Shown piece by piece: positions 38,577 through 47,975 of a DNA stretch of 64,000 nt. Position 1 is the stretch's first letter. Every line of letters begins with the position of its first letter. Source of the DNA: Sphingomonas sp. (lineage in GTDB: Bacteria; Pseudomonadota; Alphaproteobacteria; Sphingomonadales; Sphingomonadaceae); assembly GCF_019746665.1 (NCBI RefSeq), contig NZ_JAIERS010000019.1:2138-66137 (forward strand). The letters run 5' to 3'. The translations under genes were made by a program, and so were the position numbers. A model generated the notes under the pieces. That model made no database searches, was not told where the DNA came from, and worked only from the letters and a program-made list of their open reading frames with translations.

Positions 38577-41500
38577 TCAATCGCTGCGTGAAAGCTCATA
38601 GGCTCCCCAGGCGGCATAGCCGCCGGCGATGTGGAACGCGACCACGCCGAAGATCGCATAGGCGTCGTTGGTCTGCAGCTTCTTGCTGAGATCGGCCACC
38701 GCGCTCGAAAAACGAACAATCGTGTTGCCGATCTTGGCCGAGGTGCCGCCCGCGTTGATCGCATTGCTGGTGAGGTAATTGCTTTGCTGCCAGGCGCTCG
38801 ACAGGGCGCCGGTCGCGGCACCTTTGAGCGCCCCGGTCCATGTCGCCTGCCCCAGGCCCTGATACCAGGGCTGGTGGCCCACCAGATTGGTGACGATCTT
38901 GCTGACATCGCTGCTCGCCGCGCCCGATACCGCGCTGAGCGCCGCCTTGGTGCCGATACGAGCGAAGATCGCGCCGTAAGAGGTGCTGCCCTGCAAGCTG
39001 CTGAGCTCCATCGCCCCGCGCGCGACATTGCCAAGCGCGCTGATCCCGCCGCTCGCCAGGCCGCCGGCGGCGCCCGACAGCGCGCCGATCCCCACAGCCG
39101 AGAAGAAGCCGGCGGCGGTGAAGTCGCGTCCGTGGGTGACGTCATATTGCAGGCCGGATAAGCCCGCGCCGACCAAGGTGCCGCTGAACACGCTGTTGCC
39201 GATCGTCGCGATCGCCGATCCGGTCACGGTTTCGGCGGCGGCTTCGGCGGTGACGCCGGCGGCGACCTCGACCCCCAACTCGGCGCCTTCCGCCCCGATC
39301 AGCGCCGCGTCGACCGAGCCCGCCGCCGCGTCCGACGCGCCGCCGGTGAACGGCGTCAGCAGCAGCCCCGCCGCCGTCACCGCCACCAGCGCGAGGCCGA
39401 TGCCAACCCGCGCCCAGATCGACAGCTGTCCGCTCGGATCGACCGCGATCAGCGGAACGTTGCCGGCGAACAGATAGGGGCTCGGAAACTGGTTTTGCGG
39501 ATCGGGCGCGAGGAAGCGCATCTGGTCAGGATCGTAGAGTCGGGCCTTGAAGTTGTAGAGCCCGACCTCGCCATCCCATTCCTGGCCCTGGAACAGCCTC
39601 GCGAACCCGCTTGGGTCGACGCCGATCGGGATCAAAGGCTGGCCGAAGGGGAGATAGCCATACTGCGCGACCGCACCGTTCGCATCGACCAGCGCCCAGC
39701 AGCTCTGGGTCGGGTCCTTCAGCGGATAGCGCCGATCCGCGCCCCGCAGCACCGCGAGCAGCCCCGCCGGCCCCTGAACATAGGCGGTCCACGCGCCGTC
39801 GATCAGCGTCGCGAGCGGCTCGCTGCTCACGCCGTTGAAATAGGCGATGGTTTGTCCGACGCCGGCGCGCAGCTGCTTCAACACGCGCTGGCTGGCGTCG
39901 CCATAGGCCAGACGGATGCGGTTATCGCCGCGCGCGATCGCCACCGCCATCGCCGTGCAGCGATCATAGGCGAGCGTGCGGCCCAGCCCCTGCGTCTGCT
40001 GGCCGCGCGCGTTGAAGGCGAAATCGGTCGCAACCGCCGTGCCCAGGGTCGCGCTGGCGACGCGGTCGGTGCCGGGGGCGTAAGTGAAGTCGGTCGCGGC
40101 GCTGCCAATCGTCCCCGCCCAGATATTGCCGTTCGGATCGAACTGGGTGATCGCCTGGCTCTGGGTGCCGCTGAGCGCATTGTATCGGCGCTGGCCGTCA
40201 TAGCCGATGGTGCCGTGATAGTCGGCCGCCGCGCCGGCCAGGCTCAGCGTGATGTCGCGCTCGGTCACCGCCTCGTCCGGGGCGTAGGCGAAGCGCATCG
40301 CGAGCGACTGGTCGCCGGTGGTCGCCCGCGTTTCGATCGAGAGCGGATTGCCACGCGGATCGCTGCTCGCCGCGACCGTCCAGGCATCGCCGAGCGCTTG
40401 GATCGCGACGCCGCCATCGGGCGCGTAGGTGAAGCGCCCGAGATCGTCGCCCCCCGGGCTGGTGCCGATCGCGACGACCTTGCCCAACTGGTTGAAGCGG
40501 TAATGGACCGTCGCCACCGGGCAACCGGCGGGATAGTCGATCGCGACCACCTCGTTCAGCGGATTATAGGCATAGCCGATGGTGCCAGCGGCGTCGCTCG
40601 CGCCCGATAGCCGGGTGGTGACGCTCGCCACTTGGCCGTTCGCGGCATAGCGATAGTCGGTGTCGACCGTCACCGCGCCCGCCGCGGGATCATCGCCGGG
40701 CGCGGCGTTATAGCTGGTCGAGCTCGATTTCTGCCCGATCAGGTCGGGATCGCCGCCGTCGCCGTCGAACCGCCAGACGGTGGCGGGCGTGCCGTCCGTC
40801 GGATAGCTGGGATCATCGGCGCGCGCGCGCAGCGTCGCCGCGTCCCAGATGCCCTCGACCACCCCCTGTTCGACCATCCGGTTGAGCGCGTCGAACTTGT
40901 AATAGAGATACCAGGCCTCGCCGCTGTCCATCGCCGGCTGGACGAAGCGCAGATTGCCCGCCGCATCATGAACGAAGCGGACCAGCCCGGCGTCGCTGTC
41001 GGCGAAGCCCTCGCTCAGCTGGAGCGGGTTGGTCGTCGCGACGCGCACATAATCGGCATCGCCTTGCTGTGGGCCGCTGCCGGTGGCGTTGGGCAGCCGG
41101 GTGGTGACGGAGACGACCGGCCCGCTCTCCGCGATCGTGTACGCATATAGCCCTTCGGAGGCTTCGGTGCCCGATCCATCGGCGGCGGCGCTGGTCGAGC
41201 CGACCTGTTGGGTGAGCATGTCGAGCAGGGTCGCTGCCTGCACCTTGGCCGGGCTGATGACGGTTTGGCGCGCGAAGATCGGACCGTCGTCTCCGCCGCC
41301 GGTCGCGCCGTAATCGAACTGCACCGTCTTGCGGTCGGCGGCCGGCACGGTGAGGTCGATCGCGCATTCCTTGCCCGGCGCCCCGGTTTCGAGCGTCACC
41401 GAGCGCGGCGACGGCTCGTAGCGGGTGCCATGATAGGGATAGCCCTGGTCGTCGCTGCGGCGCACCGGCCCGTCCTGCTGGCCGCGATAATAATCGGCGA

Positions 41501-44500
41501 CGTCACCCGGCATCTGCCAGGTCGAGCCGAGATTGGCGAGGAAGCCCGGCACATCGACGAAGCCGGGGTGATATTGCAACGGCGCCACCGCCGCGCCGCC
41601 GCCGAAGCTGCCGGGCGCGCTCTTGGTAACCGCGATCACGCGGTCGAGCCCGTCATTCACCGTCTGCGCGACCACGCTGTCCGCGCCGACCAGTTGATGC
41701 GCCTGGCGCTGGCGCTCGGCGGCGTCGGTATAGGTAAGGCCGAGCCGCATGTCGCTGCCGATGGTCAGGTTCTTCACCCCTGTGGCGCCGCCGCCCAGCG
41801 TGACCGCGATGGCGCGGGTGGCGGGTGCCCGCTTGGCGCTGAACAGCAATTGACCGCCGGCGAAGAACAGGAAGATGCCGGCATCGGCGAGCACCAGCCA
41901 TTGCCGCGCCGGCGCGACACGCGCGGTGAGCGGCGCGATGGGGTCCGCGCCTTGCGCCGCGTGATAGCCGGTGCCGTCGAAGCCGACGACGATGTCGCCG
42001 AACGTCACCGCGATCGTGCTGCCCGCGCTGGGGATCAGTTCGAGATAGAGCGCATAGGCGCCGCTTGGTTCGGCGCCCGTCCAGCGTAGCGTGCCCGGGG
42101 TGCTGCCGGTGTAGCTGAGCACGTCGCCCGCGACCGTCCAGGCGGCGGCATCGCCATCCGTCGCCCAGCGCGCGCGCCAGGCGCCGGCATCACGGAAGGT
42201 CTCGACCTGGCCGCCGCCGGCGGGATGCGCCGTTACCGCGGCATTGGGGCTGGCGGGATCGAAGGCGCCGGCGGGCGCGCCAGCGCGCGAGAGGAAGTTG
42301 AGCGCGATCTCCTGCACGTCGCCCGTCGGCCCAGCGGTTAGCGCGGCGCGGTTGGTGTCGTCATAATAGCTGAAACTCGTCGCCCCGCTCGCGACCATCG
42401 ACGCGAGCACGGCGTGCGTCGCGCCATCGAACGTGCGCCCGGTCAATCCGTTGGCGAGCGGCACCAGCAGCGCCGCGTCGATCTGAACCTCGACGGCACC
42501 GTGGTTGGCGATCACCAGCGCGATCGATAGCGCCGCGCCTTCGCTCGCGCCGGGCACCGGCACGGGCAGCGTGCGATAGACCCAGGCCCCATCGGTCGCC
42601 TCGAAATCGAGCGTCGCCGCCGGCTGGGCAACGTCGTCGATCGTCACCGTCGCCGCCAGCCCGCTCCCCGCGACCGGCGCATAGCCCGGATCGGTGCGAT
42701 ACCAGCAGCCCGCGACATAGGCCGCGCCCGCCTGATATGGCGCGATCGTTACCGTCGCGCTCGCGCCGCCCGGCAGCGCGAGCGACTGGACGCCCGTCCG
42801 CGCCAGATCGGTGCGGAACCGCGTGCCGTCGAACCGCCAGCCCTCGAACGCGTCATAGGGCTGGAAGTCGCTATAGGCGAAGCCGCCGGCGCCCGCGTTG
42901 GCGCATTGCGCCACCGGGAACTGTTCGTCCTGGGCGTAAAGCGTCGCGGTCGGCACGCCGAGCGCGCTCAGGCTCTCAAGCTCCAGGCCGTAGCGGGTAC
43001 GCCGGGTGAAGCGCTGGCCCAACGTCCACCCCGCGGGGCTGTTGCCGGCGTGATAATCGGCGAACGGGAAGCCGACGCTCGACGCGCTTTCAAGCGCGAA
43101 ACGCGCCTCGCACGCCCAGGCGGTGACCCCGTCGCCGAGCAACGTCGCCCAGGGCTGATAGGTGGTCGCCGCCGCCTTGATCGGCACCGGCGCCCCCTCG
43201 CCCCCGATCGGGCGCGCTTGCGCGGAGCTCTCGGCGATGTCGGATAGCGCATGGATCGCGCGCAGCCCTGGATAGACTTGGGCGCCATAAACCGCGCCAT
43301 TCTCGAACGTCTGGCGGTCGCCGTTCGCGGTATAGCTGTCGGTGGATTGCAGCACCGGCCGGCTGCCGAACGGCGCGGGCTGGCCGGGGGCGACATAGTA
43401 GCTCCGCTTGTGGGTCGTCAGCCCGTCGCGGAAATCCTCGATCGCGGTGGTCGTCGCGAACCCACCATGCAGCTGCACCGCGCCCGCCCCCGGATCGCCC
43501 GGAGTGAGCGACACCTGCGTGAAGACGGAATACTCATACGCCGTCGCCTCGCGCAGCACGCCGTCGCTGTCATAGGTCGCGGTGCGGCGCAGCATCCCGT
43601 CGAGCATGTTGTAGTAATTGCCCTGGGTGATCGTCAGGCCGTTGAGGTAGAGATTTTCGGTATAGCCGTTGGCGGGCGCCGCGCGATCGGCGCAATCGGG
43701 ATAGACCCGGGCGCGGTAATATTTGACGATCCGGCCCGATGGATCGCACGCCGCGCTGCTCGTGTCGAACTCGTAGAGCGTGGGCACGGGCGTTTCATAG
43801 CCATAGTCGATCGTCAGCCGCGCCACCGCGAAATGGACGATGTTGCCCTGCAGGGCCGAACCCGCGAAATGATTGAGATAGACGGTGTCGCTGCTGTCGA
43901 AGCTGATCGCGCGCGCTGGATAGGTCATGAACATCTGCGGGCCGCCCGCATAGACGCCGGCGCCGGCGATGCCCCCGGCCATGCCGGGATAGGTCATCTT
44001 CTGGCCGTCGAACGACCCCAGCGCCTGGAACTGGCCGCCATTGCGCAGCACCGCCGATTTGACCGCGACCGGGTTGGCGCCATCGTTGACGACGAAGCTC
44101 AGGAAGCCGGGCGCCTGGTTGACCAGCGAGTCCGAGTTTAGGACGGCGCTCACCCCGCCGATCTCGCTCGCGAGGTCGATCGTCGCCGCCTCGGCGACGA
44201 TCACCGCCCAATCATCGGCGATGCCGCGGAAATAGACATAAGGCCCGGCGACCGCCCAATCGGCGCCGCCGCTGCTCGGCCAGTTGAGATAGCGCGCCTC
44301 CTGGGGCGGCAGGCTTTGCTTGAGCGCGGTGCCCGCCTGCGGCCAATCGCCGGTGTTGCGCGTGGCGTCGAAGCCGAGCGCGAAGCCGGTGGGCAACGTG
44401 ATCGAATTGGTGGGCGCGAGAATCTGGATCACCCAATCGGGGCCATAGGCGTAGCGTATCTCGGTATCGGTGACCGAGGGCGGCGGCGTCAGGTTCTGGT

Positions 44501-47921: not shown

Positions 47922-47946
47922 GATCAAGCTCCTTTGCGGTTATCAT

Positions 47947-47975
47947 ATTATTGGGAAACCAGACGGCCTCGGCAA
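47947..47975 (-). promoter_or_regulatory. Sigma70-like promoter candidate TTGCCG-17 nt-AATAAT
   Basis: On the minus strand the -35 is at 47975-47970 and the -10 at 47952-47947, about 26 nt upstream of the ATG at 47921. It is embedded in a ~40% G+C stretch. Confidence 0.3.

Follow-up and report, generated by a model that had tools for sequence, protein, structure and literature searches.

RHS cocoon proteins are known to be delivered by TcA injectors or by the spikes of type VI secretion systems (T6SSs), and to these must be added the unexplained SGS proteins of mosquitoes. A stretch of 64,000 nucleotides (nt) from Sphingomonas sp. (contig NZ_JAIERS010000019.1, positions 2,138 to 66,137; here called the window) raises the question of how such a cocoon might operate with none of this machinery alongside. 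It encodes, on one strand, a 292-amino-acid (aa) protein, the small partner, followed by an RHS protein of 2,784 aa, the giant; the open reading frames (ORFs) scanned in these 64 kb included neither a TcA-size gene nor VgrG, PAAR, Hcp or TpsB. The initial annotation of the locus, drawn up from the sequence alone, had reported the same absences and had proposed a self-contained ‘TcB-TcC-like’ cocoon system, or one with a novel partner; the coordinates and 111-nt spacer that it gave for the two ORFs proved accurate (Table 1).

Here we report that the small and giant genes make up a genuine, autonomous two-gene RHS module, that the giant is a bacterial counterpart of the mosquito SGS proteins and not a Tc BC fusion by sequence, and that horizontal transfer has carried the cassette into at least six bacterial phyla. 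SGS proteins have already been linked to RHS giants of Wolbachia (PMC2647948, PMC3482391); the giant is a new member of this RHS/SGS lineage, and its conserved arrangement in a two-gene unit is new, as is the partner family. No description of a free-living family of ~2,800 aa with an invariant cargo and a small partner was found in the literature searched, and the small partner has no Pfam family. Both ORFs have hundreds of homologs, which marks them as genes and not as chance ORFs of GC-rich DNA.

A bacterial counterpart of mosquito SGS proteins

Family searches of the kind proposed in the initial annotation gave a divided result. Against NCBIfam, the giant passed only with TIGR03696, the Rhs-associated core (54.2 bits against a cut-off of 32.5, E = 1.5e-14), while Pfam SpvB (PF03534) and TcdB_toxin_midN/midC (PF12256, PF12255) gave no match, whether the search took the whole protein (E ≤ 0.1) or residues 1-500 and 501-1044 (E ≤ 10), and RHS_repeat (PF05593) stayed below threshold (17.1 bits, cut-off 22). 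Many homologs of the giant have precomputed PF05593 and PF25023 (TEN_YD-shell) matches. No PAAR, prePAAR, VgrG-binding or two-partner-secretion (TPS) domain was seen in a Pfam scan of the giant.

Comparison with proteins of solved structure pointed elsewhere than to Tc toxins. When the giant was searched with phmmer against all PDB sequences, the sole matches were SGS1 (8FJP, E = 1.4e-33) and SGS4 (9ON3), the SGS1 match consisting of two colinear stretches, one of which places query residues 1355-1858 on SGS1 1353-1843. A family profile built from 28 homologs strengthened these matches (SGS1, E = 1.5e-97; SGS4, E = 4e-84) and recovered, around the core only, Rhs proteins of T6SSs (E about 1e-26 to 1e-13) and teneurins (E about 1e-17), with no Tc toxin chain at E ≤ 0.01. 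Sequence homology with SGS1 spans residues about 1327-2598 of the giant, and a structural match covers residues 1-1150, for which an AlphaFold (AF2) model was made (predicted local distance difference test, pLDDT, 87.3; predicted TM-score, pTM, 0.87). In a Foldseek search with this model SGS1 was the best hit (E = 2e-27; query TM-score, TMq, 0.53), ahead by 10 orders of magnitude, whereas Tc BC structures reached a TMq of about 0.2 (E 1e-12 to 1e-15). The SpvB N-domain matched the N-terminal model locally and at fold level only (6p0x; target TM-score, TMt, 0.42). The SpvB-type N-terminus of the initial annotation thus finds no sequence support, and its ‘TcB-TcC-like’ label stands for the general RHS-cocoon fold but not for the Tc sequence families, all of which fail; the lineage of mosquito SGS1 and Wolbachia WD0512-0513, to which the giant is closest, had gone unrecognised.

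With SGS1 domain boundaries taken from PMC9935623, the two proteins share a shell start, a large propeller, carbohydrate-binding-module (CBM)-like and lectin-like insertions, a YD spiral, a core with the full Arg/Asp/Asp set and a hydrophobic tail. The W/Y/F-rich segments that had been described as propeller-like at ~510-1040 are indeed beta-propeller-like and equivalent to SGS1 propeller 2: the AF2 model is all-beta with short strands over ~505-1040, and Foldseek matches this region to SGS1 and to many WD40/propeller proteins. The YD/RHS repeats placed at ~1040-2400 stand with a qualification, as that stretch includes the region aligning to the CBM and lectin-like insertions of SGS1. Within the shell, conservation is highest in residues 1-500, where mean pairwise identity is 50% (37-39% elsewhere in the shell). 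They are nearly as conserved as the Rhs core, yet belong to no detectable sequence family, and are a candidate docking surface for the small partner.

Three parts of SGS1 have no counterpart in the giant: the N-terminal, seven-bladed propeller 1 (residues 1 to about 384) and the wedge (2225-2465), as judged from alignment offsets, and the C-terminal, arthropod-specific Tox-SGS domain (PMC9935623), the giant terminating about 280 aa past its predicted cleavage site. We therefore class it as a bacterial relative; strictly speaking, it is no SGS protein. SGS1 and the giant both lack a signal peptide, and no TcA or immunity partner accompanies SGS1 or, in the window and the locus flanks, the giant; SGS1, however, is the product of a eukaryotic gene with no known small partner, whereas the bacterial giant has one. 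Relative to the bacterial family, propeller 1 and the wedge look like additions to SGS1, and in the solved structure they touch each other (PMC9935623). One idea is that together they functionally replace the bacterial small partner.

A word-indexed search returned at least 218 homologs of the giant, almost all of 2,700-2,900 aa. Named sources include Burkholderia, Paraburkholderia, Lysobacter, Massilia, Agrobacterium, Labrys, Methylocystis, Terasakiispira, Myxococcus, Archangium and Enhygromyxa, together with cyanobacterial, acidobacterial and Pseudonocardiaceae metagenome-assembled genomes (MAGs). This family of ~2,800-aa proteins reaches at least six phyla; viral contigs yielded no copy. 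Bacterial homologs of SGS1 have been described as ‘much shorter’ (PMC9935623), a statement that a bacterial family at ~2,800 aa contradicts. The Wolbachia giants related to SGS/AAEL004181 (WD0512/WD0513 in wMel, within Octomom, and WP1346/WP1348 in wPip) likewise have no immunity genes and have been interpreted as host-directed, but, compared by description only, they differ in bearing C-terminal deaminase and latrotoxin C-terminal (CTD) domains and in being prophage-associated with an ankyrin gene as partner (PMC2647948, PMC3482391). No partner of ~290 aa has been reported for them, and the present family comes from free-living bacteria.

The Rhs core terminates in DPSGQ and is followed by an extension of 282 aa, both as originally annotated. 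Core residues R2464, D2477 and D2498 are invariant across 28 diverse homologs, and aspartyl autoproteolysis is predicted, by analogy with characterised cocoons, at DPSGQ|L (residues 2502|2503). Of 120 homologs, 116 have DP[ST]G-x after the core and then a hydrophobic start that is conserved (ISxWAQVGIGxAMVA...TGGA type), and the tails after the cleavage motif measure about 265-335 aa. A tail hidden Markov model (HMM) recognises 114 of 117 homolog tails at E ≤ 1e-5. With a mean pairwise identity of 31%, against 37-50% in the shell and 54% in the core, the cargo is the quickest-evolving part of the giant, yet it is one family. A polymorphic C-terminal toxin, suggested by the bimodal coverage (91%/100%) among homologs, was rejected on these grounds, and with it falls the idea of a variable toxin that calls for an immunity gene: one conserved cargo family across the clade removes much of the puzzle of the missing immunity gene.

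The window's tail is rich in small residues (G+A+S 46%) with 27 charged residues, has a strong transmembrane (TM)-like segment at 2503-2533 and another at 2756-2778, and is denser in small-xxx-small zipper motifs than the shell (0.121 versus 0.032). The tails of SGS1 and the giant are alike in length (about 230-280 aa) and in their predicted TM helices, and HMMER alignments between the two proteins continue from the core into the predicted TM-helix region of SGS1 (2734-2884). By cryo-electron microscopy the equivalent helices of SGS1 are enclosed within the shell (PMC9935623).

The small partner and its linkage to the giant

The small protein has no Pfam, NCBIfam or PDB sequence match. Its triple repeat, noted at the outset, is secure: compared with each other by hhalign, the repeats give probabilities of 98-99% (E 1e-13 to 1e-19), with DHH at residues 42, 141 and 235 followed in each repeat, about 29-34 residues later, by DxSG[NH] (71, 170, 269). 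As a name for the family DHH serves less well; it is present in all three window repeats and absent from the most divergent partners. The partner at an actinobacterial locus (L014 6933-7976) and another divergent one (L015 6974-7930) are homologs (E 1e-51 and 8e-35) with zero DHH/DxSG, while the partner of A. rhizogenes retains two of the three. The conserved His/Asp motifs could be metal or pH-sensing sites.

An AF2 model made with 18 homologs is all-beta (pLDDT 94.1, pTM 0.92), and the small protein is thus confidently modelled as a pseudo-threefold beta-sandwich. Foldseek gave best probabilities of 0.94-0.96, but with TM-scores of 0.27-0.38 and identities of about 10%; it found no close structural relative, and a viral fold library yielded nothing meaningful. 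The best fold analogues are the C-terminal Cys/His-rich domain of PCSK9 and the APC-beta domain of the Plasmodium/Toxoplasma perforin-like proteins (PLP1), which also consist of three tandem beta-sandwich modules in pseudo-threefold arrangement and are binding modules, not enzymes; APC-beta is the part of a pore-forming protein that binds the membrane. The resemblance is an architectural analogy and not demonstrated homology, and the small protein differs in being standalone and bacterial. An exhaustive profile search yielded 613 cluster representatives of the family (E ≤ 1e-3), of which 161 pass E ≤ 1e-30; standalone proteins of 280-320 aa make up nearly all of the family. The few longer proteins, examined as fusions that might offer a functional clue, bore no Pfam domains or names. 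An origin of the small protein as a duplicated domain of the giant was rejected (hhalign probability 0.1). The family is new at fold level and unannotated, with a clear genomic handle.

That handle is its position. Whichever gene was used as bait, the small gene lay directly upstream of the giant, on the same strand, in 24 of 24 loci from ~17 distinct lineages, which bears out the co-occurrence that the initial annotation had suggested checking. With giants as bait, a small-protein homolog was immediately upstream on the same strand at all seven loci (a metagenome contig, Myxococcus sp. SDU36, Lysobacter sp. K5869, P. aromaticivorans, a Pseudonocardiaceae MAG, a divergent member of 31% identity and A. 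rhizogenes), with HMM E-values of 1e-35 to 1e-127; with the small protein as bait, a giant followed directly in 8/8 genome and 9/9 metagenome loci, within the limits set by contig ends. On the metagenome contig (L001 7836-9770) and in Lysobacter sp. K5869 (L004 8111-9940) the giant is preceded by two paralogs of the small gene, diverged and in tandem. Across pairs of loci, identity between the small proteins correlates with identity between the giants (r = 0.94; 0.78 once close pairs are set aside).

The module also ends where the two genes end. DNA homology between the window and S. kyeonggiensis is confined to 47932-38590 (79.7%), exactly both genes, with unrelated flanks, and together with the synteny this upholds the proposal of a self-contained unit with a dedicated partner. 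In the locus flanks (8-10 kb unless cut by a contig end), an all-against-all comparison of ORFs revealed no third conserved gene; the genes downstream of the giant differ between lineages, and no TcA, VgrG, PAAR, Hcp, TpsB, immunity, Eag or DUF1795 gene was seen beside any of the 24 loci. The actinobacterial locus has PPE and EspG neighbours, which argues against T6SS dependence, and another locus lies in a cyanobacterial MAG.

A proposed mechanism and its rivals

We think it moderately probable that the module is a self-cleaving cocoon of SGS1 type, which stores a conserved membrane-inserting tail and has an obligate small partner, and which operates without TcA, T6SS or immunity gene. From N to C the giant would comprise a shell start, a large propeller closing one end, two surface insertions of beta-sandwich fold (CBM-like and lectin-like) and further YD spiral, with the Rhs core plugging the opposite end. 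On the model of Tc toxins, Rhs effectors of T6SSs and SGS1, the Arg/Asp/Asp set of the core would cut after DPSGQ, and the freed, glycine-zipper-like tail of 282 aa would stay shielded within the shell until a trigger drives it into a target membrane, where it would form a pore or a membrane-perturbing helical bundle. A precedent for such cargo is Tse5 of Pseudomonas aeruginosa, a T6SS effector in which an Rhs cocoon delivers a pore-forming C-terminal fragment and autocleavage is required (PMC10684867). A cargo that is identical in kind across the family, and shielded, would need no immunity gene, and the target would then likely not be sister cells. We infer for the small protein the role of a soluble accessory subunit that docks on the cocoon, most likely for target or membrane recognition or as a release trigger, and so a minimal functional stand-in for TcA or VgrG/PAAR. 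Neither N-terminus is signal-peptide-like, as the initial annotation had it, and the small protein has no TM segment; because neither protein has a signal peptide, export would probably proceed by lysis, by vesicles or by an unrecognised route.

Several points weigh against this account. All the evidence, from gene structure and family membership through SGS1 homology, conservation of catalytic residues and cargo, and partner fold to strict synteny, is computational. The tail alone has no significant match in the PDB, the TM region of SGS1 included, and its homology to the SGS1 tail, which is partly supported, is argued from alignments running outward from the core, as well as from where it lies, how long it is and what it is made of. 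The absence of TcA and T6SS covers the window and the flanks, and a distant partner is possible in proteobacterial and myxobacterial members. The role proposed for the small protein rests on weak architectural similarity (TM at most 0.38), and the absence of both DHH and DxSG motifs from the most divergent partners indicates that these are not essential to the family's common function. Export is unexplained by the model, and a cytoplasmic chaperone or safety role fits the partner's missing signal peptide just as well.

This last point leads to the reading in which the small protein is an intracellular helper, either a chaperone for cocoon folding and assembly or an immunity-like safety factor that protects the producer; it seems to us possible, if on the whole doubtful. 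The protein has neither signal peptide nor TM segment, its gene comes first in the pair and has a strong ribosome-binding site and an AT-rich 5′ end, tandem paralogs occur at some loci, as with immunity genes, and its divergence tracks that of the giant. Rhs immunity genes, however, normally lie downstream and vary with a variable toxin, whereas this cargo is of one kind throughout; against membrane toxins it is usually a membrane protein, and not a soluble beta-sandwich, that gives protection; and the fold analogues are extracellular or membrane-binding modules. Since the giant lacks a signal peptide too, the absence of one does not imply a cytoplasmic function. The conserved cargo and missing immunity gene would also suit a module that is not offensive at all, in which a teneurin-like or SGS-like surface or secreted scaffold uses its tail as a membrane anchor or channel for the producer (for instance in adhesion, in contact during predation or in the biogenesis of vesicles). 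Of the relatives, teneurins and SGS1 are non-toxic (PMC9935623), and CBM-like and lectin-like domains on the surface would fit. We nevertheless judge this distinctly unlikely, given that the catalytic Arg/Asp/Asp set is strictly conserved while teneurins have lost the last Asp (PMC9935623), that genes resembling phosphatidylinositol-specific phospholipase C (PI-PLC) or phospholipase D (PLD) beside some loci suggest attack, and that the patchy, horizontally transferred distribution is typical of weapons.

Two further readings assign the giant to known delivery systems. As an orphan T6SS Rhs effector, it would have its VgrG/PAAR and chaperone elsewhere in the genome, and the small protein would be its adaptor. 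Many host genera (Burkholderia, Myxococcus, Lysobacter) possess T6SSs, T6SS Rhs proteins are the next-best sequence matches after SGS (7q97, E = 6.8e-26; 8h8a; 8qj*), and Tse5, again, has an Rhs cocoon with a self-cleaved, membrane-inserting pore former as cargo (PMC10684867). Yet Tse5 has only about 1,300 aa, depends on T6SS/VgrG/PAAR, has the immunity protein Tsi5 and aligns to the family profile only at the Rhs core (8cp6_B, E = 3.9e-13). The giant is roughly twice the size of T6SS Rhs effectors, shows no PAAR, prePAAR or VgrG-binding domain and, at all 24 loci, adjoins no VgrG, Hcp, PAAR, Eag or DUF1795 gene; its cargo is invariant and has no immunity gene, and the cassette occurs in an actinobacterial contig and a cyanobacterial MAG. 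Neither of these lineages is known to possess a T6SS, and we consider this reading very unlikely. To the reading as a fused TcB-TcC of a classical Tc (ABC) toxin, with TcA elsewhere in the genome, we give hardly any credence. Like TcdB2-TccC3 and YenB-YenC2, the giant would combine a propeller-closed RHS cocoon with a core that is an aspartyl autoprotease and with a C-terminal fragment held inside; in size it matches a BC fusion, and Tc BC structures appear in the Foldseek results together with the local SpvB match. Against this, no Tc family or chain was detected by sequence, structural similarity to SGS1 is far closer, no TcA-size gene lies in the window or flanks, the cassette moves as a two-gene block, and its relative SGS1 is a soluble monomer without TcA (PMC9935623). 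Tc cargo, moreover, is a hypervariable enzyme where the giant's is a conserved hydrophobic domain, and in place of a pentameric injector of 2,500 aa the cassette has a small beta-sandwich partner. Nor does the module resemble the remaining toxin classes compared: downstream genes are unrelated between lineages and the tail is a single family, unlike in polymorphic toxins, and neither TpsB/CdiB nor a TPS domain or signal peptide, as in contact-dependent inhibition (CDI) and two-partner secretion, was found in the window or the loci.

Returning to the SGS1-type cocoon with its obligate partner, one can picture a minimal two-component injector in which the partner docks on the shell as a receptor-binding, possibly pH-sensing trigger, replaces TcA or the T6SS spike and releases a channel-forming cargo into eukaryotic or prey membranes, the module being ancestral to mosquito SGS proteins, where a fused propeller and wedge took over from the partner. 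This more specific picture is tentative, and we regard it as unlikely to hold in full. If the broader account is right, the cassette would represent a third recurrent genetic solution to cocoon delivery, composed of the cocoon, a membrane-helix cargo that is invariant and a single small, obligate partner. Mosquito saliva contains SGS proteins in abundance; they are implicated in the transmission of Plasmodium and arboviruses and are hard to make recombinantly; a full-length bacterial counterpart would allow helix exit or channel formation and the release trigger to be tested, which is difficult in mosquitoes.

The locus and its surroundings

Features of the cassette and the correspondence of the family profile with SGS1 are collected in Table 1.

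Table 1. Features of the two-gene cassette in the window, and segments of the giant family profile aligned to SGS1.
Feature	Position	Strand	Description
Giant gene	38577..46931	(-)	Uninterrupted ATG ORF, 2,784 aa; SGS-like RHS cocoon protein
Giant residues 1-500	45432..46931	(-)	N-terminal shell start/plug region, GLGW motif; covered by AF2 model
Giant residues ~505-1040	43812..45419	(-)	Beta-propeller-like domain, counterpart of SGS1 beta-propeller 2
Giant residues ~1355-1720	41772..42869	(-)	Colinear with SGS1 CBM (1345-1494) and carbohydrate-recognition domain of lectin type (lectin-CRD, 1575-1715) insertions
Rhs-associated core, residues 2427-2502	39426..39653	(-)	TIGR03696; terminates in DPSGQ
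Cargo, residues 2503-2784	38580..39425	(-)	282-aa Gly/Ala/Ser-rich hydrophobic tail
Spacer between small and giant genes	46932..47042	(-)	111 nt, 75% GC; contains AAGAGG ribosome-binding site of giant gene
Small partner gene	47043..47921	(-)	ATG start, 292 aa, three ~97-aa repeats
Small-protein repeat R1	47631-47921	(-)	DHH and DxSG[NH]
Small-protein repeat R2	47346-47630	(-)	DHH and DxSG[NH]
Small-protein repeat R3	47046-47345	(-)	DHH and DxSG[NH]
AT-rich region 5′ of small gene	47922..48180	(-)	Putative cassette promoter; sigma-70-like match 47975-47947
Family profile 80-127	SGS1 435-482		Weak
Family profile 445-503	SGS1 656-710		Weak; just ahead of SGS1 propeller 2 (705-1216)
Family profile 1327-2224	SGS1 1323-2208		E 3.9e-45
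Family profile 2257-2598	SGS1 2457-2814		E 9e-51

Each ORF has its own Shine-Dalgarno-like site, as first annotated: AAGGAG 7 nt ahead of the ATG of the small gene, which has an alternative TTG start 6 nt further 5′, and AAGAGG 6 nt ahead of that of the giant gene. The AT-rich stretch 5′ of the small gene (43% GC, against 69% for the window) had been named as the only promoter-like region, and it does hold the only promoter-like match on the minus strand, in a match count that is not above shuffle expectation. This putative promoter falls outside the block shared with S. kyeonggiensis, where homology begins at 47932. A regulatory RNA or terminator in the spacer was considered and rejected: the fold is no more stable than those of shuffled sequences (z = -0.22), and no terminator-like site was found between the two genes. 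At other loci the corresponding gap ranges from 24 to 618 nt and is mostly 60-130 nt. The S. kyeonggiensis spacer has a GC-rich hairpin followed by TTTT, which is terminator-like (L007 about 10880-10930), whereas the window spacer has a hairpin but no T-run; in some strains this hairpin could be an attenuator that sets the expression ratio of small to giant gene.

The small gene is 4-9 points lower in GC than the neighbouring giant gene at every locus measured (the window and 11 loci), and its first 150 nt in the window have only 40% GC, while GC at third codon positions (GC3) in the giant gene equals that of the host. A deficit common to every locus points to amino-acid composition or intrinsic bias and not to recent transfer. 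No convincing terminal repeats were found at the cassette ends, and the only tRNA in the window, at 17250, is not near the cassette; with these findings and the host-like GC3, a mobile-element signature at the cassette ends was rejected. The surrounding genes are of housekeeping type (LeuRS, FtsK, MetH, IlvD/Edd, TolB, ABC-F).

Candidates for further members of the cassette were rejected in turn. The minus-strand ORFs at 35001-36347 (448 aa) and 36450-37187 (245 aa), which might have continued an operon downstream, are shadow ORFs; the true gene in this interval encodes an ABC-F ATPase on the plus strand (35127-37013) and is convergent with the cassette. An Hsp70/MreB-like gene on the same strand (37036-38370) might have been a third member or an immunity gene; it is not adjacent to the cassette in S. 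kyeonggiensis, is on the other side and inverted in the SG_bin6 MAG, and is unrelated to the downstream genes of other loci. In SG_bin6, which is 95% identical, a 1.4-kb segment corresponding to 37036-38416 of the window (L006/L017 8034-9402) is inverted and lies between ilvD and the small gene, with no repeats found at its junctions. The giant gene of this MAG is broken into four ORFs, and the inversion may be a real rearrangement or a misassembly.

Directly after the giant in Terasakiispira lies the PI-PLC-like gene (PF16670, E = 2e-16; L009 19396-20874), homologs of which likewise follow the giant in the Pokkaliibacter and cyanobacterial loci (L008, L013), and the downstream gene in Paraburkholderia (L005 23112-24971) has faint PLD matches; such neighbours may be lineage-specific, membrane-attacking accessory genes. 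On the other flank of the window's cassette, an ORF of 941 aa (48522-51347) matches IlvD/Edd dehydratase domains only from residue 388 on. Its true start is probably internal, and the region at about 50200-51350 may belong to another gene.

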